Positions 5,650-53,502 of a stretch of DNA of 64,000 nt are shown piece by piece. Location: contig JBNRSN020000003.1 of NCBI GenBank assembly GCA_051313645.2, positions 431,706,001 through 431,770,000 of the forward strand, written 5' to 3'. The notes beneath the pieces were generated by a model that saw only the letters and a program-made list of their open reading frames with translations, did not search any database and was not told the DNA's origin. Every line of letters begins with the position of its first letter. Position 1 is the first letter of the stretch. Source of the stretch: Centroscyllium fabricii (Eukaryota). A program made the translations under genes and the position numbers.

Positions 5650-5946
5650 CAGGTTGAGCACCGTTAATCCGGCACCCTCGGGACCAGGCCGGTGCCGGAC
5701 CACTGAAAATTCCGAACCACTAAAGGTTCGAGGGGAGTGTGCGGTAGAACACTCCCCGGGAGGGAGTCCGGGGATAGAACACTTACAAAACCGAAAAAAA
5801 ACAGAAACCCAAACGCCCGACGCCTTCGGTGCTCGCTCACCCTTCGCGGGAAACGGTGGCGCCGCCGAGTGGCTGCTCCGCAAAATGAAGAGCACCGGTT
5901 TCCAATCGTGCCGGACCATCGGGTGCCGGATTAGGTGCTCAGCCTG
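5650..5946. mobile_element. Tigger/pogo-like MITE
   Basis: TA TSD; TIRs CAGGTTGAGCACCGTTAATCCGGCAC / GTGCCGGATTAGGTGCTCAGCCTG; same payload as the 52991 copy, in the opposite orientation. Confidence 0.85.
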
Positions 5947-6292
5947 TACTGGGATTCCCAGGAGGCCAAGAAAATTGCCTTCTCCAAGTGCTTCATCAAG
6001 CTGAACTTTGAGCTGGTTGCTGGGAGGTGCATAGCAGGCTGGAGTGACTTCCCTTCCCTTCCTAAGGGAAAGATGGTTTAGTTTCATTCCATAATCTCCC
6101 TGACCGCATAGCTAAGATAAATATCTCGACATGTGTAGCATTGCATGTGTGACTTCTCTTTGTAGGGTGCCTTCAGAAAGGCACTAGTCTTTACGTCCGA
6201 GTCTTTCCTTTCCCCCTCTCTGCCACCCCACCCCCCCCATGCGTAACGCAATTAAGATTTTGACAATGAAAATAGCTTTCTTCTCTTTTCAG

Positions 6293-6443
6293 TCATTATG
6301 AACTAAAACGCATCGACGACATTGTTACGTTCTTCAATGATTTCGGCGACCACCTTGCAGAGGAAGCGCTGTGGGAACTGTCATTAAAAATCAAACCGCG
6401 CAACATTCAGCGACGGAAAACAGAGCGCGATGAGAAAACCTAG
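6293..6443 (+). CDS. RAPGEF1: RAPGEF1 last coding exon to TAG stop
   Basis: cttttcag|T CAT...; HYELKRIDDIVTFFNDFGDHLAEEALWELSLKIKPRNIQRRKTERDEKT*, matches the C3G C-terminus. Confidence 0.96.
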
Positions 6444-7504
6444 GATTCAACCGTGAAGGCTAAACCTTAGATGGCAGCTAATGAACCCCATTAAGTGACT
6501 TCCTTTACTTAACTGAGCTGCAGAAGCCAGTTCATGCCAAGGTGCTTCACCTTCGGAGCTTTGTTTTTAAACAAGGGCGCAGAACAGGTGGCACCACTCT
6601 AGGGAAACGTTTAAGTTTTATGCCATTGCCTGCATTCAATTTCCTTTCCTACCATCCGTGCCAAGCTGTTTTAAGTGTCCTCTGTTGGGCCCATTCATAC
6701 AGCTCACTTTAACTAGTGGACCTGATGTGGTCTGCATATAGACTCTGCTTTGGAGACTGTTTTGACATTGTTAGGTACAAAGGTACGACAGTTCACTCGC
6801 TGATTGTGAACTTCTGTTTATAGAATAACAAATAGCGGTACTAGCAATTGCACAGGAAACCTTAAAATATAATTATGTACTGTAGGAGAAAGACTGGCTC
6901 ATTGTAAATACTAGATTGCTAGTTTGATGTGCTGTATTGGATTTTTTTTGCATGAGTATGACTGAATGCCAGTAATTGAGGATTTGTTATGAAAAACAAA
7001 TGAATTGTACATAAGAGACAGAGAGAAGTGTTTTAGCCAGGCTGGTACTGAAAGGGCTGGGATGGCTCCTAACAATTGTTCGATGTCATCAATTGGCAGA
7101 CTCACAAAAGGCGCAACACAAGCGTTTGTACATTTTGTGCATGGACTCTGCATTATGGAGTTTGAAAATGTTAAGTGGAGTTTTTTTAAGGGCTGTCTCT
7201 TTTTTTGTTGACTGGGAGTTGAGCTGCAGTTGAGCATTTTCAATAACGGGGGAAAGTTCTGTAGTTGAGACTGGAGGTTTCTGTACATAGCCAGTCTACA
7301 AATTAACTCTTCAAAGCAGTAGGGTTGTCTGCTGAGTTTGACTGTTAACCGTTCAAGTAGTCAGTGAATTCACCTCTATTTGCAAGGTCATCTTCATATT
7401 AACTCGTGGAAAATAGATGCTGCTGGGTAGAGTGCAATCCTTGCTGCTTTAGGTTGTTAGGCACACATCCAGGTTATTAATGTTGTCTAGGTTGTCACAT
7501 CTAT

Positions 7505-7690
7505 CAGATTCAGATTCAATTTATTTGTCATTGCATAGCGAACAAACACCATACAACGAAATGCAGTTCTTGCCAAACCCCCAAGAACAACGCAGATGTC
7601 AAAATGTCCTCGTCTGTTCCATTCCATGACAGTCCCGGTGCTCCAACCATGCAGGCCCCGGCACTACGAACATCTAGAAAGGGAACCTGA
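7505..7690 (-). repeat. Retroposon 3' fragment related to 1-148
   Basis: tttatttgtcattgcatagcgaacaaacaccatacaacgaaatgca matches the reverse complement of 60-125. Confidence 0.5.
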
Positions 7691-8746
7691 TGCCATGTTT
7701 GATTAGTTGACAACAATCATTTGTTGAACCTGAAAAGAAATGTTTCCTTCCTGTATTTAGGGAATAAAAAGTAACCCGCAATAATGATGCAGCACATGTG
7801 AGTCCAGGTAAGGAAGTACATACCCGTGCACATATTATAAAACCCCAAAATGCAGAAATCCATGTTGGTTGTTTTCAATGTCACCATGCTGACTCTTAAA
7901 TTATTGTATAGGTTTAAGCAATCGGCATTATTAGTTTTAACCCTTTCACCAGCACAGACTTGGAATAATGCTGAAACACAATATAGTTGATAAATATATG
8001 TGGATGTTCTGAAATATATTGTCAAACATAATATTCTTGGTTTTCCTAGCAGGAGGTGTTTTAACTGGGCCTCAGCACCATTTTCACTGCAGTCCCTGTT
8101 CTCTAGCAGATGGTTTAGTTTGCAAGATGGAGCAAGCCATGCGTATATTTGATAAATGAGTAAAATGTGTGTTGTATAAACACACAAACCCGTTTTAAAA
8201 TATCTGGTCCCTAAATGGCACCAAATTTATTTTGATTATTACCACTATTGTCTCGCTTGTTTGAGAAATTTCAAATTTAGCATAGTGAGTGCAATTAATT
8301 TCATAGAGTTTCAGTCAGATAATGAATTATAAAAACTAATATTGAACTTGGTACAGGAAGAACTTTTTTTTTTTTACTTAAGCACTGACCCGGTGAAGGG
8401 GTTAAATCCAGCCTGAGAGCTTGAGATACTTAAAATCTTGGTCTACATTTGCTGTTTGCTCTGCATTAACATTAGACACATGCAGAGCCTGTCCTCACTC
8501 CTAGGAGGATGACACACGCAATAGCAGTTTGGTTGCACCAGCAGACTGTGCCCACTAACCTGTTCAGAATAGGGAAAGCATGTTGTGGAAGGAGATAACG
8601 TTTTTGGTGTTGAAACACATCCAGATCGGTGTGATGACAACTCGTATCACTATTTTCTCTTGCTTTAAAGTGAAAAAGGAGATCACCTTGTATGTGTGTA
8701 AGAAGTCACACAACAACAGGTTATAGTCCAACAGTTTTATTTGAAA

Positions 8747-8783
8747 TCACAAGCTTTCGGAGCGCTGCTCCTTCATCAGGTGA
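8747..8783 (-). ncRNA. Minimal hammerhead ribozyme motif (opposite arm)
   Basis: same structure on the - strand with core CUGAUGA. Confidence 0.72.
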
Positions 8784-8902
8784 AGTGAAGAGATGCATAA
8801 AGGCACAGCCTATATAGTCAGAAAACAATGCTAGATGATTGCAGGTAATTTTTCTAACTGTTTTCTGACTATATATGTGGTGCCTATATGCATCTCTTCA
8901 CT

Positions 8903-8939
8903 TCACCTGACGAAGGAGCAGCGCTCCGAAAGCTTGTGA
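8903..8939 (+). ncRNA. Minimal type I hammerhead ribozyme motif
   Basis: UCAC-CUGACGA-A-GGAGC(AGC)GCUCC-GAAA-GC-UU-GUGA: stems I and II pair, and palindromic AGCU replaces stem III. Confidence 0.72.
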
Positions 8940-10477
8940 TTTCAAATAAAACTGTTGGACTATAATCTGGTGTTGTGTGACTTCTTGCATTTGTCCACCC
9001 CAGTCCAACACCGGCACCTCCACATCACCTTGTATATGAGCTTTACTTCTGAGTGCTGACCCAAAGTGTTTCCTTCCACTCTACCTGCTCACCTGCAACA
9101 GGCTAAACTAAACATAGTAAGCAAGTTTGACCTCGATTTGTATTAATTCTGAATTCAGGGCTTGGTTTCTTTACCAAACGATGGCAAACTAATTGGTTTA
9201 TGTCTGACATTTTTAAAACTAACTGTGGTAGATCAAAAAGAGGTTGGTTATGATAACTGGTGCCGGGATAAAAGCTAACTCCCACAGACGATTGTCAAAT
9301 AAGAGGTGCTTTATCCTCTGGTAATGTTTGTGGAAACAGTTGGTATGAGTGTAAATCAAATTAACTCTTAACATTTGTGAACAGAGCAAAATATGCCCCA
9401 GGTTGTTCAAAGTAGCTGTATTTTGGCCTTGGTCAGTTACAGTTTTAATTTGAGCTAGCAGGGGTAACTTAATATTGTTTTAAAGTTGTTTTGTTTCAGG
9501 CTATCAAAATAAGACATTTGGACAGTTTTATATTTGCAAGTGGATTACAGATGGGACAAAGTTCCATTTCCAGGAAAAGTATTTCACAGTTGCCAGATTA
9601 TTGATGGTGTGTAGCCCATAACTTTAGAAAAACACATTGTGACTGACATAAGATGGGCACGGAATTACATTTTGGGTAAGGTTTCAATTAGATTGCATGT
9701 TTCTTTTACTCGACTCAATAACCTATCTGTGCTGAAACTAATATCTGGACATTTGAAGTCTGAATTCAAACAATTGGCAAGATTTCCAGAAACCAGATTT
9801 GGTTTGCTGATTTAGCTAAATTAATATGAACTATCCAGTGAAGTAGCTTATTGGCTTTGTTTCCTGGCCTGCAGGTTAAATTGATGACATGAAATGGAGA
9901 ATTGGTTTCTGGTATTGAACTTGCTTCTAGGTCCGCAGAGCATCCTTAAGCCTAAAATAAATCCTGTAGAAGTACTGATGCTAGACCAGCAGGAATTGGA
10001 AGTTTAGTGTTTCACTGGACTTTCTATTGAAATTCTCATTGTACAACATGTGTTAGCAGATTGTGTAGTTCTTTTGAGATGTTCATCTGCAACCATGAAA
10101 AGTAGCAGCTGTAGCAAATAGGAGATTTGTGATCAATCCCCAAATATTTGGTTATCAGAAATTGTACTTTGGAGGCCAGTGTGAAGTTAGAATGAGAGAA
10201 CATTGCATCAGATAATGTCAATCTGGCTTGTACCATATTTTTAACCACCACCTAGGCAATTTCGGGCTCAATTTTCCCATCTCCAAACCAGTCTGTCTTG
10301 TGCTGCTTCTCATCAGTTCTTCACGTGATCTCCCATTTTTTCAGGTGGTTCAGAACCATCCTTCATTTACTCCCTCTTGGTCTTTTTACTTTCATCTTCC
10401 ATTGTCACTCATATTTTTTCATCAGTTCTTTTTTCAGTTGTCTAATCAATATCCTCTTCCTTCCATTAAGTTGGGGG

Positions 10478-11507
10478 GTTGGTAAATAGTGAGGAGGAAA
10501 TCCGCAAGATGCAGGACGACATAGATGAGTTGGTCAGATGGGCGGAACAGTGGCAAATGGAATTTAGTTTTTCGCCTCTCCCGGGTGATCACATGGGTTT
10601 GGGCGGGATGGAGAGTAAAAATAAAATTGAGGTTAGGATCAGATCAGCCATGATCTTGTTAAATGGCGGAGCAGGCTCGAGGGGCCGATTGGCCTACTCC
10701 TGCTCGTATTTCTTATGTTCTTAATCCTGAAAAGTGTGAGGTGATGCATTTCGGTAGGTCTAACATGGCAAGGGAATACACCATGAATGGTAGGACGCTA
10801 GGGAAGACAGAGGATCAGAGGGACCTTGGTGTGCAGGTACATAGGTCCCTGAAGGCAGCAGGACAGGTGGATAAGGTGGTTAAAAAGGCATATGGGATAC
10901 TTGCCTTCATTAGCTGAGGCATAGAATATAAGAGCAGGGAGGTTATGATGGAGCTGTACAAAACGCTGGTAAGGCCACAGCTGGAGTACTGTGTGCAGTT
11001 CTGGTCGCCACACTACAGGAAGGATGTAATAGCTTTGGAGAGGGTGCAGAGGAGATTCACCAGGATGCTGCCTGGGCTGGGGAGCTTCAGCTATGAGGAG
11101 AGGCTGGGGTTGTTTTCCTTGGAGCTGAGGGGGGACCTGATTGAGGTGTACAAAATTATGAGGGGAATAGATAGGGTGGATGGAGTGGAACTTTTTCCCT
11201 TGGTTGAGGGGTCAATAACTAGGGGGCATAATTTCAGGGTAAGGGGCAGGAGGTATCGTGGGGATGTGAGGAAGAACTTTTTCACCCAGAGGGTGGTTGG
11301 AGTCTGGAACTCGCTGCCTGAAAGGGTGGTAGAGGCAGGAACCCTCACAACATTCAAGAAGCATTTGGATGAGCACTTGAAATGACACAGCATACAGGGC
11401 TACGGACCAAATGCGGGAAAATGGGAGTAGTATAGACTGGGATTGATGGGCAGCACGGACGTGATGGGCCGAAGGGCCTCTTTCTGTGCTGTATGACTCT
11501 GACTCTG
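10478..11507 (+). mobile_element. CR1 LINE 3' fragment, interrupted at 10566-10722
   Basis: WQMEF|NPEKCEVMHFG...RPQLEYCVQFWSP; tail tgactctgactct. Confidence 0.88.
10566..10722 (+). mobile_element. Short retroposon with a CR1 3' tail
   Basis: ttttcgcctctcccgggtgatcacatggg... plus CR1 tail; nearly identical to the 24073 copy. Confidence 0.7.
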
Positions 11508-14500
11508 TTAACTATTAGCTATAGAATTAACTATTCTAACTTTTCCCATTGTAATTCTAGCTCTCACCACCTTGTCACAGCTGCCATCTTTCGTTCATTA
11601 TATTGCCCAGATATTTAAATTGTGTCTCCTGATCCAACTGTTCCCCGTTTATTAAAATGCTCACTTTCACCTGCATTCCTAGAAACCTTCATGACATTGG
11701 TCTTGCCCACATTGATTTACATTTCAGAATCCAGTGCTGCAGCATTCAGGCTTCTTGCCAACAACTACTTGCAACCAAGACTTTATCAGCAAGTCTGATG
11801 ACTTTCACTAGCTGAGCTCGAACTTTCACTCCTGGTGTAATCGAGGACAAATCTGATTTTCTTAACGGTGTGATGATCTAATCACTATTGGACAAACTGG
11901 TTGTTGGATATCTTAGATTTGCCATCCTTGCCATTGAAATTTGGTCATTTTAAGATTGACATTTGTTTCTTAGCCACCAGATTTTCCCACTGTCTGACAA
12001 GACATCTGTTTATCTAGTAAACTTTGCCCTAAAGATTCTCCAGCCTCAGTCATGGATCCCCAGCACAATAGTGTACAGAACAAGAAGGTACTGTCCTATA
12101 TGGTATGGTCAATATTCCATGTTAATAACACTGATGAACCAGGTGTAAAACTGCAAGACTCTAGACCAATAACCTCTTTATACTGTGTCTCCTTAAGTTA
12201 TGGGACCCTCAGCTGTACCCTCAAATTGGCAGTTTTAATCTAGGACCCTTGTTGATGTTTGACTGTCCCAACAGTGAGCATTCACATTGGTGAAAACTTC
12301 ACGTACCAGTAAATCACTTATGGTATTTACTGCTTGGTAACATCGTGAAATTATTTAAATCTTGTGTGCCCACACAATAAATTGAATGCAATGTTGCATA
12401 ATTGTGCCTCTAGGTTTGATTTACAAGATAAATCTTCCTTTCAAGTTAAAAGACCAATGGAAATGCACTATTTCCAGTCTAATATCCTGCATTGGATACT
12501 CCGCTGCCCTGGTGTGCTTCAGTTGTAAAATGGTGCATCAACTCAGATCTGACTTGGTTAGGAACATCCTTGAATTTAGATCCATGATTTTTGTTGAGCC
12601 CCATTTTCCTACTCTTTCTCCCAAACCCCCACCCATTTGAGGCAGCGTGCAGGGTTGTCATGGACCCATTGTTTTAGGGCTGTTGTCAGTGTTGCACTCT
12701 GATCAGAGCAGATCCTCCCAGTTTCTCCTTTTCCAATGAGATGGTGTACAAAGTGCTTCATTTCATAGCTTTGGAACTAATGAAGCTCTTATTGAGCAGA
12801 GTTCAAATGATTGCTGAGATAGAGGTTTCAATTCTGCTTCTCCACTCTGAATAACCAGGCAACAAACTCCATCTGCTTTCTTTTTAATTTCTTCAAATTA
12901 TCTTCTGTTCAGCCACGTAAAAAGTATTTCCTATGGAAATGTATCCAGAAATGGTATTGTAGTTTCCTGAATTAAAGGAACTGCAGACATCTGACTGTTT
13001 TAAGTTCTGTCACGTTGCATGAACATTTGGAGTTTTTTTCAGTATTAGTGCAGTGGTTAAAAATGTATAGTATTTCTGTTTTCACCCTTACTGGGCCTCC
13101 ATCATTGAGCAACCTCGAATAACAAGAATGTTCATGATCCAGATTGCTCTGTATCTTGAGTGAATTGTGCTAATGACCAGATATTTATTTATTAATTCTA
13201 GTGGCCCAGTGGGGAACTAACTCAATTCACCATCAGCCCTTAAACAATAGCCTGAAATTTACAATAAGACACTTTACCAGAGTGTTAAAAAATTGCCAAG
13301 TTTTTTTTCTTATCTGAACGTTAAGGGCTGTAAGAATTTTTGAGCGCAGAATGGTGTTAACTTGCTTGGAGGCAATTGTGTATTTTAAACTCCAGTTGAA
13401 TGGAATGTCTTTTCAGCAGACAGACTCGTGTTCTTAATAGGAATGAGCTTGCTGAGACTGATCATGGTTACCATAAAATTCAAACAACTATTGTTTTTAA
13501 AACATTGTCTAAGAAATCAGCATAATCAGTTGATTGTTTGACTTCTCAAGTGTCTGGGTTTTGGCCCAGTGGTTATCTGTTGATCACTTCTGTCTAAAGC
13601 TGAAATTTCACAACTGTCGTGCCTTTTAGAGAAGAGGCAAACTAATGTAGACCATCTTGCTCCTCTTGGCTTATGTGTTCATTGGCCAATTCTGGAGTAA
13701 CATTGGAGATGGCAATTGTCATTTTTATGCATTGTTCTCCTGGCAAGATTTAAAAAATGAGAACACAGAGTAAAATGAATGCAAATTGTTGAAGAAAGTA
13801 TGGCTGTATGAGGGGTGTAGAATACCTCTATTTTTAAATAGGATGCAACAGTAAGTTGGATCAGACCAAATAGGTATTACAGGTATTGGGCTTTCAATTT
13901 GGAAAATGTTCTACTAAAAAGCAAAATGCATGTTTTTAATCTGAAATTGTAACCATTTGAGTTTGTGCTGACTCACTGGAATTCTCAACAGCCTAGAAAC
14001 ATGTCCACTTAACTTTATTGTTACATATTTGAACCAATTTGAATAGTACTCTTATGTGCATTGAGTTTTCTTTGTTAGCTAAATATTATCTTTTCACATT
14101 CAATACAGCATCTTTTGTATATACTTCAACATTTTATATAAAAAGTAACCCCTGAAGAACCATTTCTTGATTTATTTTTTCTTTTAGTTTTGAATAATAT
14201 AAGTAATCAGAGTGAGAAATTTTCTAGAGTCTGATTGAGGAGATGGGTCTAAACTCAATCACATTTTGTTGTACTAATTGCTCAAAAGAATTTTAAAAAT
14301 TAGTGCTTTTACCCTGGATGCTTGAAGTTGTCAAAATGCCCTAACTTTTTTGAAGAAATTCTCCCAGAGCCACAGCCTAACACTGCCGACGCCGGCCTCA
14401 TCTTCGCTTGAGTATTACTTGTATATTATAAAATGTCATGTTCCTGCAACCATTTCAAATGTGTAACTTTTTTTAAAAATAAAGGCTAACATTCATGTTT

Positions 14501-26594: not shown

Positions 26595-27164
26595 CAAGGT
26601 TGAAGTTCGTTAATCCGGCACAGGCGGGATCAGGCCCGTACCGAACAAGTGAAAATCCCGAACGATTGAAGTTTTGGCGAGCGCATGCGCAGACCATTCA
26701 AAATGGCCACCGCGAAAGGCCGGCGGCCATTCTGAGTGGTCTGCACATGCGCTGATCGTTCGGGGAGGCTCGCAGCGGCCAGGCTCGGGCAAGCTCGCAG
26801 CGGCCAGGCTCGGGGAAGCTCGCAGCGGCCAGGCTCGTGGAGGCTCGCAGCGGCCAGGCTCGTGGAGGCTCGCAGCGGCCAGGCTCGAGGAAGCTCGCAG
26901 CGGCCAGGCTCGGGGAAAGCTCGCAGCTGCCAGGCTCGTGGAGGCTCGCAGCAGCCAGGCTCGTGGAGGCTCGCAGCGGCCAGGCTCGGCCATTGTGAAT
27001 GATCTGCGCATGCACTCGCCGTTCGGCGGCACATGCGCAGATCATTCTGCCAAAGCATCGATCGCGGTGGCCATTTTGCACATGCGCAGGGCAGTTGGGG
27101 AAATTATTGCCGGACGTTCGAAGTTGCCGGTTTTTCGGGTGCCGGATTAACGAACTTCAACCTG
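26595..27164. mobile_element. Tigger/pogo-like MITE with an internal 25-bp minisatellite
   Basis: TA TSD and TIRs; about 9 units of GAGGCTCGCAGCGGCCAGGCTCGTG at about 26762-26989. Confidence 0.87.
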
Positions 27165-37688: not shown

Positions 37689-39182
37689 CTATGGAAGGAG
37701 GACCAAAGGTAATGACAGGTGTACTGATGCACTTAACAAAATCAAGACACTGTGTTTAACAAGTCTGTCTCTTCATCATTTATAAACGACACAAAAACCA
37801 TCTAAATGTAAAAATCAATGCTCTCCTTCAGTTGTGATGGTAAGAAGGTTAAACAACTGGATTTTTCAAAGATGACTTTCGTGCCAACCCGGGATTAATA
37901 GGCTGAAAGCAACCTGTGGTGAGACAACACAGATATGCCACTGAGGCCATGATATTCTGCTGCAAAGTGCACCATCTAGTGGCCTGGAAGACACCCATCA
38001 AATCTTATGGCAAGTGGGTAATAAGAACATAAAAAATAGGAGCAGTGGGCGGCCATACGGCCCATCGAGCCTGCTCCGCCATTCAATAAGGTCGTGGCTG
38101 AAGTTCTACATCAACTCCGCTTTCCCGCCCTATCCCCATATCCTTCGATTCCCTTAGCGCCCAAGAATCTATCGATATCAGTCTTGAATATACTCAATGA
38201 CTGAGCATCCATTGCCCTCTGGGGTAGAGAGTTCCAAAGATTCACACCCTCAGTGAAGAAATTTCGCCTCATCTCAGTCCTAAATGGCCGACCCCTTATT
38301 CTGAGACTATGACCCCTGGAGAGATAAAGGATCAAATCTGCAGGGAAATCACAGAGGTGTGCAAGAAATATATTGTTGTGATATTGGGGGACTTTAATCT
38401 CCCAAATATCGATTGGGATAATGTTAAAGTAAAGGGAAAGGAGGGGGAGGAATTTCTGAAATGTGTTCAGGAGAACTTCCTTGACCAGTATGTTCTCGGC
38501 CCAGCTAGAAAGGAGGCATTGCTGATCTGATGCTGGGAAATGAGGTGGGCCAAGTGTCTGTGGGAGAACACTTGGGTAAGAGTGATCATCGTATCATAAG
38601 GTTTAGATTAGAAATGGAGAAGAGCAAGGAACAATCTAAAGTAGAACATCTAAATTGGAAGAGGGCTAACTTCAATGGGATGAGAGGAGATCTAGCCAGG
38701 GTAAAATGGAACCAAAGATTGACAGGAAAAACTGTAATGGAACAATGGGTGATCTTTATGGAGATGATGTTTCAGGTACAGGCTAGGTACATTCCAACAA
38801 GAGGGAAAGGTAGGGGAACCAAAGCCAGGGCTCCATGGATGACGATAAGAGGGTGTATGATGCATGTCAGGTGAATTCTTCAAGTGAGAACCAGACCAAA
38901 TACAATAAGTTGAGAGGGGAAGTGAAGAGGAAACTAAGACTGGCAAAGAGAGAATATGAGAATAGAATGGTAGTTAACATAAAAAAGAACCCAAAAATCT
39001 TCTACCGGCATGTAAATAGTAAGCAGGTAGGAAGAGGTGGGGTGAGACCTATTCGGGACAAAGAGCTTAGAGACGCAGGACAAGGCTAGAATACTTACTT
39101 AGTAAACACTGATACAAAGTACTCATTAAGAGGATACAGGTTGAAGTTCATTAATCCGGCACCCGAAAAACCGGCAGCTTCA

Positions 39183-39587
39183 CGGCACGGTGGCATAGTG
39201 GTTAGCACTGTTGCATCACAGCACTGGAGACCCGGGTTCAAATCCAGCCTCGGGTACTATCTGTGTGGAGTTTGCACATTCTCCCCGTGTCTGCGTGGGT
39301 TTCCTCCGGGTGCTCCGGTTTCCTCCCACAGTCCAAAGATGTGCGGGTTAGGTTGATTGGCCAGGATAAAGTGACCCGTAGTGTTAGGGGGATCGAATAT
39401 GTGGGGTTACGGGGATAGGGTGGGATATGTGTCGGTGCAGGTTCGATAGGGATCGAGGGATATGGGGACAAGGCAGGGACAGGGTACTGGGTTTGGATGA
39501 TCAGCCATGATCTCATTGAATGGCGGAGCAGGCTCGAAGGGCCGAATGGCCTACTCCTGCTCCTATCTTCTATGTTTCTATGTTTCA
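39183..39587 (+). mobile_element. HE1-type V-SINE (full length) inside the Pack-MITE
   Basis: tRNA head, V-domain and CR1 tail ending ctatgtttctatgtttc. Confidence 0.88.
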
Positions 39588-39680
39588 GTCGTTTGGCACA
39601 GATTTTCCCGACGCCGGCACAGACAATTCAAAATGGCTGCCGTCGGGGCTGGGCTTCCCTTACACCGAACATATACTCAC

Positions 39681-39795
39681 TGGATCCCGGCTTAGTGACC
39701 ATTCCGATGCCGATGGTGAATCCCAGGCCCAGAAGATGAGCTGTTGTGACAGCTGCCTTTCGCAGGACGCGATACAGGCAATGCTCGGTGCCCAT
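39681..39795 (-). pseudogene. CYB561D2: Transposon-captured first coding exon of CYB561D2 (cytochrome b561 family member D2)
   Basis: gcagcgATGG (strong Kozak context), then MGTEHCLYRVLRKAAVTTAHLLGLGFTIGIGMVTKPGS(S) and a |gtgagt donor; aligns by eye to human CYB561D2 [38 protein letters not shown] (recalled); lies inside a TIR element, no other exons present. Confidence 0.88.
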
Positions 39796-40069
39796 CGCTG
39801 CCGGAGGCTCCTGCCTGGCTGCGTGCTGACGTCACCGCGTTCCGAAGCTGGCGTGCGGTGGCGTCACGTGAGCCGGGCTTGAGCCGCACATTGGGCCTCA
39901 GGCCCGCTGAAGCCGTGCACTCCCTGATCCGCAGCAGAATCGATGGCTGCGTGCTGACGTCACCGCGTTCCGAAGCTGGCGTGCGGTGGCGTCACGTGAG
40001 CCGGGCTTGAGCCGCACATTGGGCCTCAGGCCCGGTGGAGCCGTGCAGCCTGACCCGCAGCAGAATCGA
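39796..40069. promoter_or_regulatory. Captured CYB561D2/NPRL2 bidirectional promoter, present as a 128-bp tandem duplication
   Basis: CpG-rich; units at about 39816-39943 and 39944-40069; each has a CRE TGACGTCA (39827, 39955) and an E-box GTCACGTG (39863, 39991). Confidence 0.75.
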
Positions 40070-40112
40070 GTGAGAGTTCCACCCGACCCGTGGGCCGAAA
40101 ATCAACTGGCAG
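40050..40112 (+). pseudogene. NPRL2: Transposon-captured, disabled first exon of NPRL2 (GATOR1 subunit)
   Basis: CTG (presumed former ATG) TRSRIE*EFHPTRGPKINWQ|gtacc versus human [26 protein letters not shown]|V (recalled); apparent 12-nt deletion creating TGA; head-to-head with the CYB561D2 exon as in mammals. Confidence 0.86.
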
Positions 40113-41010
40113 GTACCAGCGAGCGCATGCGCAGAGCATTGAAAATTTTGTGTCAGCCATTTTGAATGTTCTGTGCATGCGCCGCCGTAACTGCAGTAAT
40201 TCGGTGTTTTCAACGATCCGGCAGGGTGCTGGTCCCGACCTTGCCGGATTAATGAACTTCAACCTGTACTGACAAAATATCGGTAGAAGCGGAGATGGCA
40301 GAGGTAATGGATGGAGTGCAAATTGATGGGCAGGGTGTATTGGAAAGGCTGGATATGCTTAGAGTGCATAAGTCGCCTGGTCTGGATGGCTTGCATCCCT
40401 GGTTGCTAAGGGAAGCGGGGGTGGATAGTGGAAGGGCTTGCCATAATCTTCCAATCTTCCCTAGATATGGGGGAGCCTGCCAGAGGATTGGAAAATGGCA
40501 AAATGTGACACCCTTATTCAAGAAAGGGTGTAAAGACAATCCTAGTAACTATAGGCCAGTCAGTTTAACATCAGTAGTGGGTAAGGCTTTAGAAACAATA
40601 ATCAGGGAAAAAATTAACAGGCACTTGGAGAGGTTTAAGTTAATTAATGAGAGCCAGCATGGATTTGTAAAAGGCAGATCTAATTGAATTTTTTGATGAA
40701 GTGAGAGAGAAGGTTGACGAAGGGAATGCAGTGGATGTTGTCTATATGGATTTTAAGAAAGTGTTTGACAAAGTACCACATATGAGGCTGGGTAACAAAA
40801 TTGAGGCTCCTAGAATAGGAGGGTCAGTGTCAGCTTGGATAAGAAATTGGCTTAAGGACAGAAAACAGCGAGTCGTGGTAAATAGTTGTTTTTCAGACTG
40901 GAGGATGGTAGACAGTGGTATTCCCCAAAGGTCAGTGCTAGGACCACTGCTTTTTTTGATAAATGACTTGGATATTGGAATACAGAGTAAAATTTATAAA
41001 TTTGCCGATA

Positions 41011-41541
41011 CAGGTTGTGCACCATTAATCCGCCACGGGCGGGACCAGGCCCGTGCCAGGAAATGGAAAAAACCGGGAGAACGAGTTTGGACACTGCGCA
41101 TGCGCGCCAGTCAAAATGGCCGCGCGCATGCGCGCAGCATTGCGATTGGCTGGCGCGCGCATGCGCAGATCGGGCCCGGGTCCGCCGTCCCTCTCCATCG
41201 CCTTTGGGGTTGCTGCTGCCGCCGAGCGGGACTCAGGCTGACAGCTGTTGCCTAGTGACTGTCCGCCTCAGTCACGGGGCTCAGCTGTCGAGAAAATAAC
41301 GGGCGGCCGTATTGAATTATCTGCGCATGCACTAACCGTCCGGCGACGCATGCGCAGATCATTCAAAACACCCGCAGCTGTTTTGAATGATCTGCGCATG
41401 CGCTCGGCACATGCGCAGATCATTCGCTGAAGCCACGATGGGGGCTGCCATTTTGCGCATGCGCAGTGCAGTCGGGGCAATTTGTGCCGGCAGACTGAAG
41501 CTGCCGGCTATTCGGGACACGGATTAACGGTGCTCAACCTG
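41011..41541. mobile_element. Tigger/pogo-like MITE inserted at the CR1 RT FADD motif
   Basis: tttgccgaTA|CAGGTTGTGCACCATTAATCCG ... CGGATTAACGGTGCTCAACCTG|TAccaccaaactt; CpG-rich unique payload. Confidence 0.87.
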
Positions 41542-43478: not shown

Positions 43479-43483
43479 AGGAA

Positions 43484-43614
43484 TGATGTGGAGGTGCCGG
43501 TGTTGGACTGGGGTGGACAATTGCAAGAAGTCACACAACACCAGATTATAGTCCAACAGTTTTATTTTAAATCACAAGCTTGGACTATAATCTGGTGTTG
43601 TGTGACTTCTTGCA
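43484..43614. mobile_element. Short Penelope-like foldback (family 1)
   Basis: perfect 12-bp TSD GTTATTTAGGAA; inverted arms with the tail. Confidence 0.8.
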
Positions 43615-44383: not shown

Positions 44384-44698
44384 CAGGTTGTGCACCGTTA
44401 ATCCGGGACCCGATGGTCCGGCACGAATCCGTCTGGCCAGCCCACGTGATCCCAGGGACGCTCGCGATGTGCGGGCTTCTCCCTGACTGGTCTACGCATG
44501 CGCAGCGGCCATTTTGAATTGTCTGAGCCTACGCGGCGGCCATTTTGAATGGTCTGCGCCTACGCGGCGGCCATTTTGAATGGTCTGCGCATGCGCAGCG
44601 GCCATTTTGAATGGTCTGCGCATGCGCTCCCCGAACCTTCAGTGGTTCGGATTTTTAAGTGGTCCGGCACCGGCCTGGTCCCAACGGTGCACAACCTG
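44384..44698. mobile_element. Tigger/pogo-like MITE with a 31-bp tandem repeat
   Basis: TA TSD; TIR CAGGTTGTGCACCGTT; 4 units of GCGGCCATTTTGAATGGTCTGCGCATGCGCA with period 31. Confidence 0.85.
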
Positions 44699-45233: not shown

Positions 45234-45797
45234 CAGGTTGAGCACCATTGATCCGTTACCCGAAAAGCCGGCAACTTCGAACGTCCGGCAATAATTTCCC
45301 CGACTGCCCTGCGCATGTGCAAAATGGCCACCGCGATCGCTGCTTCGGCGACTGATCTGCGCATGCGCCGCCGAACGGCGAGCGCATGCGCAGTTCATTC
45401 ACAATGACCTCCCCGAGCCGATCCTACCCGAGCCTGGCAGCTGCGAGCCTCCCCGAGCCTGACCGCTGTGAGCCTGCCCGAGCCTGGCCGCTGCGAGCCT
45501 CTCCGAGCCTGGCCGCTGCGAGCCTGCCCGAGCCTGGCCGCTGCGAGCCTCTCCGAGCCTGGCCGCTGCGAGCCTGCCCGAGCCTGGCCGCTGTGAGCCT
45601 GCCCAAGCCGCTGCGAGAGCCGGGTCTCCCCGAACGATAAGCACAAAAGCAGACCACTCAAAATTGCCGCCGGCCTTTCGCGGCGGCCATTTTGAATGGT
45701 CTGCGCATGCGCGCGCCGAAGCTTCAATCGTTCGGGATTTTCACTTTCCCGGCACGGGCCTGGTCCCGCCCGTGCCGGATTAACGGTGCTCAACCTG
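45234..45797. mobile_element. Tigger/pogo-like MITE, inverted sister of the 26595 copy
   Basis: TA TSD and TIRs; about 7-8 units of the same 25-bp minisatellite. Confidence 0.87.
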
Positions 45798-45879: not shown

Positions 45880-46366
45880 TATCAGCTCTGATAAAAGATC
45901 ATCAACCTGAAACGTTAACCGGGCGGCACGGTGGTTAGCACTGTTGTCTCACAGCACTGGAGACCCGGGTTCAAATCCAGCCTCGGGTACTATCTGTGTG
46001 GAGTTTGCACATTCTCCCCGTGTCTGCGTGGGTTTCCTCCGGGTGCTCCGGTTTCCTCCCACAGTCCAAAGATGTGCGGGTTAGGTTGATTGGCCAGGAT
46101 AAATTGACCCTTAGTGTTAGGGGGTTTGAATATGTGGGGTTACGGGGATAGGGTGGGATATGTGTCGATGCAGGCTCGATAGGGATATGGGGAGAGGGCA
46201 GGGGCGGGGTGCAGGGTTTGGATGATCAGCCATGATCTCATTGAATGGCGGAGCAGGCTCGAAGGGCCGAATGGCCTACTCCTGCTCCTAGTTTCTATGT
46301 TTCTGTTTCTCTCTCCACAGATGCTGCCTGACCTGCTGAGTATTTCCAGCATTTTCTGTTTTTATT
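45880..46366 (+). mobile_element. Penelope-like family 2 pLTR split by an HE1 SINE
   Basis: CTGATAAAAGATCATCAACCTGAAACGTTAAC | SINE | TCTGTTTCTCTCTCCACAGATGCTGCCTGACCTGCTGAG. Confidence 0.68.
45920..46301 (+). mobile_element. HE1-type V-SINE
   Basis: head, V-domain and CR1-derived tail. Confidence 0.87.
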
Positions 46367-46424
46367 AATCCTAACGGATAACCAGATATCCTCAAAATCA
46401 CTAGAATTAAGAAACACTGCTTAC

Positions 46425-46625: not shown

Positions 46626-46724
46626 CTGGAGACAGAACGACTGATTAAACCAGAGACCATAAACTTAAGAGTTAAATCAGCCTTCTCCCAAGTGTATAAA
46701 TAAACAGCTGTGTTCTCCCCTTAC

Positions 46725-46912
46725 CCCATCTTTCTGGTCCTTGTGCTGTAACCGTGGTGCACAATCGGTCTCCATACTATCCTTGTCATCAGATAAGCCA
46801 GTATCTCCCATCGTCAGCGCATGATGTGTTTGGTCCAGCAGAACAATTGCCTCGGTATGTATGGTCTCGCACACAGTCATGAGCATTTGGGAATACTGAG
46901 GGAAGTCACTAA
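46725..46912 (-). CDS. NUP188: NUP188 exon
   Basis: (V)SDFPQYSQMLMTVCETIHTEAIVLLDQTHH...DKDSMETDCAPRLQHKDQKDG; 188 nt; followed by a 99-nt intron. Confidence 0.94.
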
Positions 46913-47419
46913 CTAAACAGAAAGGATAAAAAAGATTATGAACTGTACACTGGTAGATAGCTGCAAGTGAAGTACAAGGCAGTAAAATAACTGAATTTAT
47001 AAAATGTCATAAATCAGAAGCATGTACAGCTCAGGCAATTCATACTCAGATTTCTGAATCTGCCCTGAGCTATCATTTTAATTCACATTGAATAATACAA
47101 TTTTCCACGCGCACATATATGCATACAACACAAAAACAAACTATTGTTCAGCATGCTCATCACACCTCAAAATGATATGCCTGTCACATGTGTGAAGTGC
47201 TACGTCATATTTGCTTCTGGCTCGTATTCATAAAACACAACAAATCACATGTCTGCTCTGGTTTAGTTCGAATTTGTTAGCTTTCCTCAAGGTGTGTGCT
47301 AAGTGTGTATTGCTCCCCTCGTTATAAAATATTACATCCTCTGACCCCGTAAGCAATATCACAGGAGAGCAGTTAGTGCAGGCTGCAAAAAGAGAAGCTT
47401 TACTCACTTATTTCATGAA

Positions 47420-47846
47420 TGTAAGAAGTCACACAACACCAGGTTATAGTCCAACAGTTTTATTTGAAATCACAAGCTTTCGGAGCGCTGCTCCTTCGTC
47501 AGGTGAAGTGGAGAGATGCATATAGGCACAGCATATATAGTCAGAAAAGAATGTTAGATGATTACAGGTAATTTTTCTAACTGCCCTTTATCACACCTCG
47601 GCAGAGAGATAATCACAGCAATCAAAGGTGTAAATGGTGTCCAAATGTTAGAACAATTACCTGTAATCATCTAGCATTGTTTTCTGACTATATATGCTGT
47701 GCCTATGTGCATCTCTTCACTTCATCTGACGAAGGAGCAGCGCTCTGAAAGCTTGTGATTTAAAATAAAACTGTTGGACTATAACCTGGTGTTGTGTGAC
47801 TTCTTACATTTGTCCACCCCAGTCCAACACCGGCACCTCCACATCA
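47420..47846. mobile_element. Penelope-like foldback element (family 1)
   Basis: inverted arms plus the 38-nt tail; perfect 12-bp TSD TTATTTCATGAA (47408-47419 and 47847-47858). Confidence 0.84.
47470..47506 (-). ncRNA. Minimal hammerhead ribozyme motif, sense to NUP188 pre-mRNA
   Basis: intact CUGACGA, GGAGC/GCUCC stem and GAAAGCUU-GUGA; partner copy at 47722-47758 (+) has wobble changes. Confidence 0.7.
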
Positions 47847-48644
47847 TTATTTCATGAACTCTCTTTCCTCTTTAACAATATAATTCAATGCATGTTATCA
47901 ATTACAAGTACCCTGTATAAGCTATTGATACTGGGAAAAAAAGATATGGCCACTGTTTGAAATCAATTACAGAGTAATGGACCAAATAGCACATTACAGT
48001 AACAGTGACCACTTTTTCATTCTGAAGCAGATCATACTTCACTATTTTTCCAAGAACAAGAATTGTTGCAAATGACATGTTTTTGAATTTGCTCCAGGTC
48101 TCCCCATAGTATACACTATACCCCTACTGACAGGATGGGCAGTCAATGCTTCTCAATGCTGCTCATCCGTTATCAAATGAACAAGCATGGAGTACATCAA
48201 CTCCCTCTCCAGTACTGTTGGCTGACATCTTTAAAACTGCCTGCCTTTAAAGCTCACTGGATTTTTGCCATGGACCCAAGCAGCCAGGACTGCTCAAATA
48301 ATTTCAGAGAGGAGAAATTATGAGTTGCACGATGTACTGAAACGCAGGTTCCTGAAAAGAATGTCAATCAATAATCATAACCATGCTTACTTCTCCTCTG
48401 CCAGCTCCTCAGTTATCCCTCATCCATTTAGTTCTTCCCACATACATTCCCACCATCTCAGCTTTAGTTTTACATGTGTATGGTCTTCTTCCAGCTGGGG
48501 CCCATTACATTGCCTTCTAAGGGCGCTGATCTTTAGCCACTGGGGACATATCGCCCAGAGCAATCACCACCTTGAACACTGTTTTAAGCCAACACAGGAT
48601 ACAATCTCAAAGAAAATAATTTTAAAAGGAATTGAAAGTCTCAC

Positions 48645-48790
48645 CTTGTAGATGTTTGATCTGAAGAGTAGTTATGATAGCTGAAAATATTTTTGCCTTT
48701 GTCTTCTCCATGAAGTACTGGTTACTCTGTGACAGGCTCTCTAAAATTTGGTCCAGGGGGTCCAAGATTTTAGACACATGAACAATGATG
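48645..48790 (-). CDS. NUP188: NUP188 exon
   Basis: IIVHVSKILDPLDQILESLSQSNQYFMEKTKAKIFSAIITTLQIKHLQ; 146 nt. Confidence 0.93.
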
Positions 48791-48864
48791 CTGAGAAGGG
48801 GAAAAAAATGAAAATCAGTATTCTTTGCAACAAAATCAGCTGTGCCATTACTTTATTATAGGAC

Positions 48865-50312
48865 AATTTGATCTGATCGAAGTTTTCAAGGTATTAAGGG
48901 GAACAGATAGGGTAGAGAGAGAGAAACTATTTCCGCTGGTTGGGCTGAGGACATAGTCTAAAAATTAGAGCCAGACCTTTCAGGAGTGAAATTAGGAAAC
49001 ACTTCTACACACAAAGGCTGGTAGATGTTTGGAACTCTCTTCTGCAAGCGGCAGTTGATGCTAGATCAATTGTTAATTTTAAATTGGAGATTGTTAGTTT
49101 TCTGTTAACCAAAGGTATTAAGGGATATGGGGCAAAGGCAGGTATATGGAGTTAGGTCGCAGATCAGCCATGATCTCATTCAAATTTAATTTAATTTAAT
49201 TTTATTTTATTTTTTATTGTCATTGCAGTGTACTAGTACAATACAACGAAACGAAGACTCGCCGCTCCCGAGAGTAGTGCAAATAAGTTACATACAATTG
49301 CATACAGTAAAGTACATTTTCAGGTGTGCAGGTACCGGAGTTTCTTTTTAGAGTTCAGGAGGCTGACAGCCCTGGGGAAGAAGCTGTTCTTAAATCTAGT
49401 CGTGCGGGTGCGAATTGATCTGTAGCGTCTCCCAGAGGGCAGGGGGGCGAACAGACTATGGCTGGGGTGTGTGGGGTCTTTAATAATGTTCTGAGACCTC
49501 CGTAGGCAGCGTTTCAGGTAGGTGCTTTCAATTGATGGTAGCTGGGTACCGGTGATTCGTTGGGCAGTTTTGACTACCCGCTGCAGGGCCTTCCGGTCCA
49601 AGATGGTGCAGTTTCCATACCAGACTGTGATGCAGCTTGTCAGTATGCTTTCAATTGTGCAGCAGTAGAGGTTGGTAAGGATGCCGGCTGTCAGCTTGGC
49701 CTTTTTCAGCTTCCTTAGGAAGTACAGGCGCTGTTGGGCCTTCTTTATCAGAGAGGAGGTGTTTAGTGACCAGGAGAGGTCTTCCGAGATGTGGACCCTG
49801 AGGAACTTGAAGCTGGACACCCTTTCCACCTCAGTCCCTTGGATGAAGATGCGGGGGTGTCTTCCGCCTTTAGTCTTCCGGAAGTCCACTATGATCTCCT
49901 TGGTTTTCTTGGTGTTTAGTGCCAGGTTGTTGTTGGCACACCATCCCACAAGGCGCTGAATCTCATCCCTGTAGACTGACTCATCGTTGTTGATGATCTG
50001 GCCAACCACCGTGGTGTTGTCCGCAAACTTGATGATCTTGTTGGGAGCTGTGGACAGCCACACAGTCGTGGGTAAAGAGGGAGGGGGGGGGCGGCGCTCA
50101 GCACACAGCCTTGTGGGGCCCCTGTGTTCAGGGTAAGCAGGGGGGGCGGGGGGGGGGAGATGAGGTTGCCTAACTTCACAGACTGTGGTCTGTTGGTTAG
50201 GAAGTCCAGGGTCCAGTTGCAGAGGGAGGTGTTCAGACCAAGGGTGATGGTGGTGGAGCAGGCTCGAGGGGCTGAATGCTGAATGGCCTACTCCTGTTCT
50301 TATGTTCCTATA
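48865..50312 (+). mobile_element. CR1 3' fragment split by a Rex1 insertion
   Basis: cagatcagccatgatctcatt | Rex1 | ggtggagcaggctcgagggg. Confidence 0.75.
49182..50246 (-). mobile_element. Rex1/Babar LINE, 5'-truncated
   Basis: [57 protein letters not shown]. Confidence 0.88.
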
Positions 50313-50520
50313 TGTTTGTAATCAGCTCATTCCTTTAAAAATAATTATTAGTAGCAAATGCAGGACAACATCCAGAGGTGCATTGTCTCAGGGATGCTCT
50401 TGGATCTATAACTGGGAAGCAGAAATAGCTTTGCCCGTTCCTTGATACACATCCTACCTTAATTGTTACATTTTCAAGGACGTAGCAGTCTACAACAGAA
50501 TAAAAAAATAAAAATAAAAA

Positions 50521-50955
50521 GTGTCAGTTGTGGCTCAGTGGGCAGCACTCTCGCCTCTGAGTCAGAAGGTTGTGGGTTCAAGTCCCACTTCAGGGATTTG
50601 AGCACAAAAATTAAGGCTGACACTCCAGTGCAGTGCTGAGAGAGTGCTGCACTGTCAGAGGTGCCATCTTTCAGATAAGACATTAAACCGAGGCCCCGTC
50701 TGCTCTCTCGGGTGGATGTAAATGATCCCATGGCACTAATTTCTAAGAAGAGCAGGAGAGTTATCCCCAATGTCCTGGCCAATATTTTTCCCTCAATCAA
50801 CATACCAAAACTGATTATCTGGTCGTTATCACATTGTTGTTTGTGGGAGCTTGCTGTGCGCAAATTGGCTGCCATTTCCTACATTACAACAGTGACTACA
50901 CTTTGAGACATCCAGTGGTCATGAAAGGCGCTATATAAATGCAAGTCTTTTTTTT
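50521..50955 (+). mobile_element. SacSINE1-like DeuSINE
   Basis: tRNA head gtggctcagtgg...gggttcaagtccc; Deu-domain ttaaaccgaggcccc...gatcccatggcact...gtcctggccaat. Confidence 0.8.
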
Positions 50956-51110
50956 CTAAAAGCACAATTTTGCAAATGTTGTAAACGTTGTAACAGAAAC
51001 CCACAATACATTTTTGAAAGTTGCAGAAGATATACAGTACTCAAATGGGTCAGTGATCAAATTCCAAACGGACTACAATTTATCTTCAGGTGAATCTCCT
51101 CATTTCCTAC

Positions 51111-51196
51111 CTTTTCCACTGTTTCAGCAGGACTAGAAGTAGCGTTGCCAGCATAGATCCCATTCGCAGACAGGGAGCAGATGAAGGAGCCAACAG
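51111..51196 (-). CDS. NUP188: NUP188 exon
   Basis: LLAPSSAPCLRMGSMLATLLLVLLKQWK; 86 nt. Confidence 0.93.
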
Positions 51197-51377
51197 CTAC
51201 AAAAAAAAGACATAATTTTAAGGTGAGAATCCAGCACAAAGGGTGGACGGGAGACTGACTTCTACACTTCCAACAAATGCTAGCCTAAAACTGCTCATCG
51301 GGAAATGTGTAAGAGGGGGCTTCAATGTGCCGGACATCATCTCAAATCCCATCAACATAACGAAGACTGTGGGGGGA

Positions 51378-52189
51378 GGGGGGGGATTTTCCTCGGGCCG
51401 TGAGGGCGTGTTTTCAGTGGGGCGGGGCTTAAAATCACGAAACTGGGGGGGGGTCCCGACCCCTCCCGTCGGATGCCCGCCGCTTTGCCATTCTCGGGCG
51501 GCGCGTCTAGCCGGCCCGAATCTTTTCCGCCTTCCACCAGCAGGGCTGATCATTGTGCTCGTTAGGGGCCCTTCATTGCCATGGGTAATCCCATTTTAAG
51601 GGCCCCTCACGATTTTTGAGCCCTTCCCACCCATACCCCGCCATCCTGAAACTCCGCTGGTGAAATCTAGGGGGATCAAAGTCAGCTTGGTCACTTTCAC
51701 CTTCAAGGCATTGAAGGACCTGTAGCAGAATGACTTCCAGGCCTTCAACACCCTGGAGGTGTAAGTGACTTCCTTGTCTGAGGAGCAGCTGTGGAGAAAA
51801 CCTTCCAAAAACTTACCTGAGAGATGAATGGAAATGCTTCACAGAGAGAAGGACCCTAACTGTGAGCTTTCCAGCGAGTCCTTAGACCTGTCACTCAACC
51901 CACTTGGGCTTTGAGATTGGTTGCACTCCACTGTGATGTCACAACGCACTGTTTCCATAGAAACTAACACCACACAGTCCTTACCCGCCAATCAAACCTT
52001 CGGCTGTCAACTGCAGCTCCGCTGTTTTCTGACTGGAATCAGTCAATTGGCAGGGGCTCTGACACGCGGGCAATTAATTGGCCAATGAAGCCAAAATTGC
52101 ATGGGGCTCCCAGGCCCTTGAACATTCGTGTCAGAAACCTGATCCGCCCAAAGCCTGCCAGCTTCCCACACCTTTGCGAATATCCCCCC
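51378..52189. mobile_element. Possible Harbinger-like TIR element
   Basis: GGGGGGATTTTC ... GAATATCCCCCC inverted ends and a GC-rich interior; TSD unclear. Confidence 0.4.
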
Positions 52190-52228
52190 GTGAATCTGAT
52201 TGCAATTACAGGTATAACAGATACTCAC

Positions 52229-52306
52229 CAAAACTTTGGTCCCGTCTAGAACGTCTTGTAGTAAATGCAGCCGTAGTGAACAATCACTTAGATGCATCAC
52301 CTCCGC
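52229..52306 (-). CDS. NUP188: NUP188 exon
   Basis: AEVMHLSDCSLRLHLLQDVLDGTKVL; 78 nt. Confidence 0.93.
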
Positions 52307-52679
52307 CTGGGGAATAAAATAGCTAAGAATAAAACTCAATTATTTGGTGACACGCATGCTACATCACAAAACAACACTGATTCATTGTACCTGCCACGAT
52401 ATTAAGCCCCCACCCACAACGCCGGACAGGAGAAGGTAGGGGGGGTTTAAAAAATTTTTTTTAATGGGGAACACAACCCCAACCCATTTATGCTCCTGCC
52501 ACCATTTTTACGCGCTCAGGAAAGCCGGTGGGCGGGGGAGACAGCTGCTGGCCCAAGATGGTAAGTGTCTTTTACAGCAGACCTTGTGGGCCAGGAGGAG
52601 TGCGAGTGCTCCCCCCGGGCCCCTCAAGGAAGCCTTCAGCCTCCCCTCTGCCAATCACATCCTCTCTCTACCCCTGCAG

Positions 52680-52988
52680 CAATCAGTTGGCAGCTCTCTG
52701 CTTCAGAGTCATAGGGCTGTGGGTTCAAGTCCCCCCTCCAGGGCTTGAGCATATAATCTCGGTGCAGTACGGAGGGAATGCAGCACTGCCTGCTGTGCTA
52801 GCTTGCAGATGAAACGTTAAAGTGAAGCCCCGCTTGTTTGTTCAGACGGACATTAAAGATTTTATGGCACTATTTGAAGACAAGTAGGGAGTTATCCTAA
52901 CATTCATCCCTCAATTATACCACCAAAAACAGATTCAATGGTCATTCGTAGAACCTTGCTGTGTACAAATTAGCTTGCGCATTGCCTA
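52680..52988 (+). mobile_element. DeuSINE (diverged)
   Basis: gtgggttcaagtccc...gagcatataatct...atggcactatttgaaga. Confidence 0.62.
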
Positions 52989-52990
52989 TA

Positions 52991-53502
52991 CAGGTTGAGC
53001 ACCGGTAATCCGGCACCCGATGGTTCGGCACCTTCAGTGGTTCGCCTCGAATCGAAACCGGCGGTCTTCAGTTTGCAGAGCAGCCGCTCGGCGGCGCCAC
53101 CGTTTCCCACGATGGGTGGCGAGCGCTGAAGGCATCGGGCGTTTGAGTTTCTGCTTTTTAGTGTTCTATCCCGGGGCTCCCTCCTGGGGAGTGTTCTACC
53201 CGCGCGCTCCGGGCCCCGGAGAGTGTTCTACCCGTGCGCTCTGGGCCCAGGGAGTGTTCTACCCGCGCGCTCTGGGCCCCGGGAGTGTTCTACCCGCACG
53301 CTCCGGGCCCCGGGGAGTGTTCTACCCGCGCGCTCTGGGCCCCGGGGAGTGTTCTACCCGCACGCTCCAGGCCCCGGGGAGTGTTCTACCCGCGCGCTCC
53401 AGGCCCCGAGGAGTGTTCTACCCGCGCGCTCTGGGCCCCGGGAGTGTTCTACCCCTGAACCTTCAGTGGTTCGGAATTTTCAATGGTCTGGCACAGGCCT
53501 GG
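52991..53502. mobile_element. Tigger/pogo-like MITE, right end truncated by a Penelope-like fragment
   Basis: TA|CAGGTTGAGCACCGGTAATCCGGCAC; 10 occurrences of a 31-32-bp unit (AGTGTTCTACCCGCGCGCTCTGGGCCCCGGG) at 53160-53454. Confidence 0.83.

Follow-up and report, generated by a model that had tools for sequence, protein, structure and literature searches.

A captured CYB561D2 gene start in thousands of probable pogo/Tigger-type transposon copies of Centroscyllium fabricii

The window analysed here, the whole 64,000-nucleotide stretch of Centroscyllium fabricii DNA (G000:C822:431706001-431770000), contains seven elements that share terminal inverted repeats (TIRs) and that, on their sequence features, belong to a pogo/Tigger-type transposon family as non-autonomous members. 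Very probably they are MITEs (miniature inverted-repeat transposable elements) moved in trans, and one of them, copy C, is a Pack-TIR, a TIR element with a host-derived interior, that carries the start of the gene CYB561D2, captured once and since amplified into more than 5,000 copies, in which it likely rides as an inert passenger. All genome-wide counts refer to the 7.21-Gb assembly, one of whose genes has its best named protein matches in sharks and rays (84-91%).

A sequence-only reading of this DNA had proposed seven copies with TA target sites and common termini. All seven begin where it placed them, each immediately after a TA; six are complete, with TA on both sides in 6/6, and copy A2 lacks a right TIR. 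The features are as follows, with the strands of elements giving their orientation relative to the transposase.

5650..5946, minus strand: copy A1, a full MITE and a mosaic of pieces of lineage-III autonomous elements; TA on both sides; 297/298 bp covered, main pieces at 78-88%
26595..27164, minus strand: copy B1, a full MITE whose left TIR has an additional base, composed of arms and a 25-bp tandem array
26760..26989, no strand: array of copy B1, 9.2 units of 25 bp
39137..40266, plus strand: copy C, a full Pack-TIR bearing the 5' end of CYB561D2, about 740 bp long once the nested repeat, presumably a short interspersed element (SINE), is left out
39183..39586, plus strand: SINE-like repeat in the left arm of C, a later insertion, with 92-95% matches at 45922 and 60401
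39642..40117, minus strand: captured CYB561D2 segment, comprising the 5' region, start codon (39795), first coding exon (ending at 39681) and about 40 bp of intron 1
39816..40069, no strand: 128-bp tandem duplication in the C cargo
41011..41541, minus strand: copy D, an internal deletion derivative of an autonomous element, lineages I/II
41163..41287, no strand: core of D, found in the 3' end of autonomous elements
44384..44698, plus strand: copy E, with arms, a 31-bp array of a chassis motif (44484-44627), a 55-bp remnant (44425-44479) and a shortened right TIR
45234..45797, plus strand: copy B2, a full MITE with the 25-bp array of B1 (45419-45609) and a TIR variant other than that of B1
52991..53502, plus strand: copy A2, a MITE truncated on the right, in which a subterminal repeat has expanded into a 32-bp array (53186-53454)

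The right TIR of A2 was not found: another repeat follows, and no remainder of the element was detected up to 58000. Short CAGGTTG matches at 9399, 37169, 49923 and 59783 were considered and are not elements. In an all-against-all BLAST, A1 and A2 (77% alike) and B1 and B2 (86% alike) form inverted pairs with unrelated flanks, which bears out the earlier view that both types recur as independent insertions in opposite orientation and stayed mobile after loading. The same comparison revealed subterminal arms of 100-250 bp common to B, C, D and E. The interiors differ, as had been noted, but a count of five different payloads passes over these shared, CpG-rich arms. Tandem arrays have units of 32 bp in A, 25 bp in B, 128 bp in C and 31 bp in E. 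The window holds 9 exact TIR ends against 1.0 expected, figures that reflect both the pairing of ends and the selection of the window, and its density of one copy per 9 kb, correct for the window itself, is a local high, with 16 elements in 200 kb of flank and 9 in 280 kb elsewhere. Repeats in the compared loci match about 42% of the window.

Copy C is a true capture of a host gene start and a multicopy Pack-TIR. Read on the minus strand, its interior translates to the N-terminus of CYB561D2 and matches named shark and ray CYB561D2 N-termini at 53-67%. A homologue search with the 40-codon captured exon gave no match; with Pfam, two last exons of cytochrome b561 type were detected, and named homologues assign one of them to CYB561D2. 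The source of the cargo, a contiguous 377 bp (G000:C1156:5726003-5726379; 82% with indels), sits 22.5 kb upstream of that last exon, with exon 2 in between, and covers the 5' region, the ATG, the first coding exon, the splice donor and the start of intron 1. Its splice phase rebuilds 'KPGSSLFSWHP', the junction of the named shark protein. The parent locus (L042) matches the C cargo alone, with neither a TIR nor an arm match beside it, and the gene capture suspected in C from the window alone thus has a located, TIR-free source. As a candidate source, the first exon of the paralogue, which we take to be CYB561D1, was rejected at only 47% likeness. The retained splice donor and intron of about 40 bp point to capture at the DNA level and not to a retrocopy, and the roughly 470 bp of interior not covered by autonomous loci exceed the 100 bp asked of a Pack-TIR.

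The same chimaera occurs at independent sites, as 19 other C loci lie on many contigs with unrelated flanks, 15 of them with both TIRs and 4 with one. A 9-bp deletion after the ATG, relative to the source, is shared by the window copy and 18 of these 19, and the 128-bp unit, present once at the source, occurs one to three times among the copies; together these features indicate descent from one capture. A 20-mer from the exon has 5,071 exact matches in the genome, including the source (control, 0), and since it is retained in 18 of 22 sampled C copies, the real copy number is about 6,000 or more. At the left junction of the cargo there is a 5-bp microhomology, and none is clear at the right. 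The nested repeat, which we assume to be a SINE, has no counterpart in the other C copies shown and is therefore a later insertion and not cargo of the family. One CYB561D2-carrying copy (L129:639-1233) lies about 270 bp before exon 2 of CENPW.

Autonomous partners were found by way of the transposase of a second DDE_1 family, which led to a third group of loci with exactly these TIRs. Both TIRs are present at 28 of the 39 transposase loci, with ends of 23-24 bp as in the MITEs and a span of 3.3-5.2 kb, and stop-free frames of at least 590 codons occur in 14 of the first 20. All three transposases scanned contain CENP-B_N (PF04218), HTH_Tnp_Tc5 (PF03221) and DDE_1 (PF03184), and the catalytic triad is spaced DD32D or DD31D in five of five partner proteins, which group into a single clade, its two sublineages about 70% alike, in a tree of ten proteins from this genome. 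Three autonomous copies are 98.6% alike where compared (L221/L223). TIR variants correspond to MITE subfamilies, the ends of lineage II being those of D and the ends of lineage III those of A. The Tigger/pogo character that the sequence-only reading saw in the termini, and the autonomous transposase with the same TIRs to which it pointed, are thus both found, and the family combines a TA target-site duplication (TSD), TIRs of at most 40 bp shared with an autonomous element and a transposase within DD29-56D, as expected of pogo. That the partner moves the MITEs in trans is likely, judging from the shared ends and the 95% arm identity of D. We presume the ends to be Tigger4/Zombi-like.

Two other candidates for the partner were set aside: the commonest DDE_1 family (2.4 kb, 30 loci), which has different TIRs and only hosts nested MITEs, and the second DDE_1 family (L140/L141), which is closer although its TIRs still differ. 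L140 and L141 (contigs C823 and C800) represent a pogo element whose open frame has 618 codons and which, together with its flanks, is duplicated in an apparent zinc-finger repeat cluster; lineage-III partners also cluster on C800. Several autonomous elements (L232:2306-5656, L227:2966-6917 and L238:2146-6275) have long mosaic untranslated ends that hold pieces of other repeats, and because such pieces are common to several autonomous copies, autonomous elements have also transposed with passengers.

The interiors of A, B, D and E were compared with the 39 transposase-bearing loci. D is covered over 531/531 bp by two overlapping matches, positions 1-446 to L306 at 95.7% and positions 272-531 to L223 at 95.4%, which indicates that it is a deletion derivative of an autonomous element. 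A1 (297/298) and A2 (509/512) are covered piecewise at 70-88% by lineage-III-type elements, in which the 32-bp unit of the A2 array occurs as a subterminal repeat, and E is covered over 252/315. The leftover 55 bp of E match the cargo of a further group, cluster 1, which in turn matches, at 8 TIR-free loci, an interspersed repeat of another kind. A and E are mostly autonomous pieces plus tandem arrays; the interiors of A, D and E, covered by autonomous elements or another repeat, are not the host, non-transposon DNA of a Pack-TIR. For B, the core (170-392) has no match in the 39 autonomous loci, and its array was never seen away from a TIR among 107 matches over 1.98 Mb; the likeness of its 25-bp unit to a chassis repeat is weak, with 22 of 1,000 shuffles equally good. 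Two TIR variants accompany the array in the B cluster (10 copies), which means either a transfer of the core from one chassis to another or a change of the ends once the array had arisen.

Within the autonomous element, the core of D belongs to a 3' region that is long and mosaic; the longer form of this core is CpG-rich and ends in a donor-like site, and it may be an old captured 5' exon. Its source was not among the best 40 of 2,201 candidates, and the sources of the D/J and I cores were not among the best 40 element copies, of which 30 were examined for each. The J core has 56 records in one of four presumed-RNA runs of other organisms (X1) and 0 in the other three, which carries no information on its source.

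Across the genome, a 24-letter TIR pattern has 57,111 + 56,811 = 113,922 exact matches and its reversed control has 0, so the shared termini are not due to chance. Stretches totalling 480 kb that were not chosen for the element contain 25 elements, with 13 exact ends; a very rough extrapolation to the genome gives 200,000-400,000 elements. A set of 104 elements, 80 of them complete, was assembled from the window and 118 loci, 70 of which are centred on exact TIR matches, making it a biased sample; TA flanks both sides in 71 of the 80. They cluster into D (25), A (12), B (10), F (8), K (an array type, 7) and smaller groups.

Some of these carry further host cargo. The F cargo consists of the 5' untranslated region (UTR), ATG and 27 codons of CENPW, a likeness confirmed by its locus: CENPW exon 1 at C1:428958824, which is CpG-rich and TIR-free, matches at 83% over 150 bp and lies 10.7 kb before the PF15510 exon. 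The H cargo includes two pieces of the last exon of C2orf69 (55 bp at 96% and 51 bp at 84%) amid other sequence, partly another repeat; its source is TIR-free and, at the better match, not a CpG island. A Pfam search of 126 + 62 stop-free interior frames yielded one useful match, C2orf69. Family I, TIR-flanked at all 30 loci examined among 1,274 candidates, has the arms of F and the first ~20 bp of the CENPW cargo followed by a different, 290-bp cargo, so that the sequence itself documents directly how cargo was replaced within one chassis. The sequence-only reading proposed that the family repeatedly picks up CpG-island-like DNA. Repeated capture holds at the level of the family (CYB561D2, CENPW and C2orf69), whereas five separate captures for the payloads of the window are not supported and some cargo, such as the C2orf69 last exon and an AT-rich piece of another repeat, is not CpG-island DNA. 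The outcome it named as contrary to its view, interiors other than that of C deriving by deletion from the autonomous element, is largely what we find in the case of A, D and E; it does not apply to B, nor to the family as a whole.

Family I (L273:1348-2047) is a young subfamily, with 0.5% non-CpG divergence, and its cargo has a donor-like site, a CCAAT-like motif and a motif that we take to be MEF2-like. Two cores (L181:4435-5229 and L087:725-1525) have an ATG shortly before a donor-like site and are candidate first-exon captures. Truncated F-type elements stand inside the transposase frame of another pogo family at L108:2049-2348 and L115:1332-1464, where the same host sequence resumes; these may mark a favoured site or a recombinant lineage.

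The payloads are indeed CpG-rich in a CpG-poor background, with 60-66% GC and a CpG observed/expected ratio of 0.90-1.09 in the window elements against 44% and 0.48 in the whole window. In the autonomous elements the ratio is 1.02 for the left arm and 0.84 for the 3' end, so that capture is not required to explain CpG richness. CpG transitions stand to non-CpG transitions in a ratio of 4.3-9.2 in six sets of MITEs, and of 5.8 and 6.2 in two sets of transposase open reading frames (ORFs). Non-CpG divergence from consensus is 0.5-4.3%, and low divergence combined with CpG transitions indicates young copies that lose CpG like methylated transposons and are not kept as CpG islands. Changes in the captured exon of 22 C copies fall 16/11/14 by codon position, 14 synonymous and 26 non-synonymous, and give no sign of coding selection.

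We suggest that the CYB561D2 start was captured, likely once, during repair and then amplified. The arms would suffice for transposition in cis, leaving the middle as a free slot to be filled by template switching in gap repair or replication, by internal deletion or by tandem slippage; for template switching, the 5-bp microhomology at one C junction is the hint. Each new filling would found a subfamily amplified in trans, whose copy number would reflect transposase activity and not the function of the cargo. Gene starts in open chromatin might, by conjecture, be over-represented among the templates. A bias towards 5' ends is suggestive, given two of three traced cases with a method that itself favours coding sequence.

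How far such a preference goes separates this account from a stronger one, in which the family repeatedly and preferentially captures promoter or CpG-island DNA and most interiors, including A, B, D and E, are such captures, some of them fixed in autonomous elements. We consider this possible but doubtful. Two of the three traced cargoes are CpG-rich gene starts, four cores with no traced source (D/J, G, I and L181) have a donor-like site, in two of them just after an ATG, and the 3' region that holds the D core is mosaic and unusually long; yet A, D and E map to autonomous elements, the arms are CpG-rich by themselves, the H and cluster-1 cargoes are not CpG islands, and B and K consist of simple arrays. 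Hexamers resembling a splice donor are moreover frequent by chance and ascertainment favours exons, and we treat the sites in the G, I, J and L181 cores as a lead only. Taken further still, the lineage could be an animal counterpart of Pack-MULEs at far larger scale, one that prefers promoters and first exons, swaps cargo serially, holds the D core as cargo inside its autonomous element, and has scattered promoter-exon-donor modules by the tens of thousands, a few of them now alternative gene starts; this we regard as rather unlikely. The opposite extreme, in which C is an accident and everything else MITE diversification by deletion and slippage, would fit the largest clusters of the 104 elements, D (nearly all autonomous-derived), A, B, K and the chassis-only or array types. 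It is highly improbable in view of the independent TIR-free sources of CENPW and C2orf69, the piece of another repeat taken up as cargo and the swap of cargo from F to I. Finally, loaded copies could have been selected as portable promoters or alternative first exons, and owe their number to this. The window copy of C does keep its ATG and splice donor, the 5' unit is amplified one to three times, and the arms are rich in motifs (the labels NRF1-like and YY1-like are presumptive). Nevertheless, CpG decay equals that of the transposase ORFs, there is no codon-position bias, and cargo-free and array-only subfamilies are equally abundant, all of which makes selection for function very unlikely and the CYB561D2 cargo likely an inert passenger.

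Several points weigh against amplification in trans of a once-captured, inert gene start. Present-day mobility and the capture step itself are deduced from sequence. The TIR variant of C and B1 was found at two partial autonomous loci and at no complete one. Three cargo types were traced to host genes, all found through coding sequence and hence with an exon bias, and for the cores of B, D/J, G, I, K, L181 and L198 no source was found. A and E are covered in pieces that come from several lineages and match partly at 70-78%, so that 'transposon-derived' would describe their last known home and not their first origin. The control transition ratios are lower, 2.0 for a presumed SINE and 3.5 for the end of what we take to be a CR1/LINE (long interspersed element), and most copy sets behind these ratios were chosen by similarity.

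The kind of element is known, and it is the scale of copying that is new relative to the passages of the literature compared here. As given there, Tan et al. 2021 report 370 Pack-TIRs in 100 genomes, only 4 of them multicopy and 0 in elephant shark (PMC8277862); one, Pack-hAT-N8_XT, carries the CAPSL 5' UTR on three chromosomes. Like those multicopy cases, C has a host fragment, a captured 5' region, between non-autonomous TIR arms, a TIR-free parent and distinct insertion sites; unlike the Pack-TIRs described in these passages, one cargo here has at least 5,071 matches and several cargo subfamilies share one chassis. Tan et al. propose gap filling for single-copy Pack-TIRs and fork switching followed by transposition for multicopy ones (PMC8277862), and either would fit this family. 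Their pipeline, as described, required 90% identity and a unique top hit (PMC8277862). C, at 82% with indels and with thousands of closer copies, falls outside this cut-off, which we read as a filter for young cases and not a definition of the class, and such cases would be missed by it. Rice Pack-MULEs, in the portion of the account used here, belong to the Mutator superfamily, with an 8-11 bp TSD, about 3,000 elements and interiors that are often low-copy (PMC5861414). The likenesses are transposon arms around a non-transposon middle, GC-rich gene fragments placed into GC-poorer DNA and several donors in H, and a preference for gene starts is plausible by analogy with the GC-rich Pack-MULE cargo (PMC5861414); the difference is that here a pogo element that targets TA has made thousands of copies of each of a few cargoes. 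In the features taken from Gao et al. 2020 (PMC7386202), the family resembles Tigger within pogo: TA TSD, TIR below 40 bp, CENP-B_N, HTH_Tnp_Tc5 and DDE_1 domains, DD32D/DD31D and a length of 3.3-5.2 kb. It departs from Tigger as outlined there (PMC7386202) in its long mosaic untranslated ends and very large swarm of cargo-bearing MITEs, the placement being by features, with a tree of own-genome proteins only. No shark Tigger/pogo capture family was found in the literature searched, in which the supplements of Tan et al. were covered for shark terms only.

As far as these sources go, almost every published Pack-TIR of animals is single-copy, and the rare multicopy cases amount to a handful of copies each, whereas here a first exon exceeds 5,000. 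Coexisting cargo subfamilies and young partners with open frames make the acquisition of host DNA, and any preference for gene starts, testable in a vertebrate. Annotation of this genome should allow for transposon cargo or arms that pose, in their thousands, as first exons of CYB561D2 and CENPW and as CpG islands.

The window also contains features unrelated to the family. An exon of a RasGEF domain, presumably RAPGEF1-like, lies at 3155-3252 on the plus strand with acceptor and donor (Pfam E 1.2e-4), and the left of the window is likely in or near a RasGEF-domain gene. Hairpin-forming repeats with arms 94-98% complementary occur at 8697-9027, 47418-47846, 43482-43581 and 53457-53626, and one of them follows A2.

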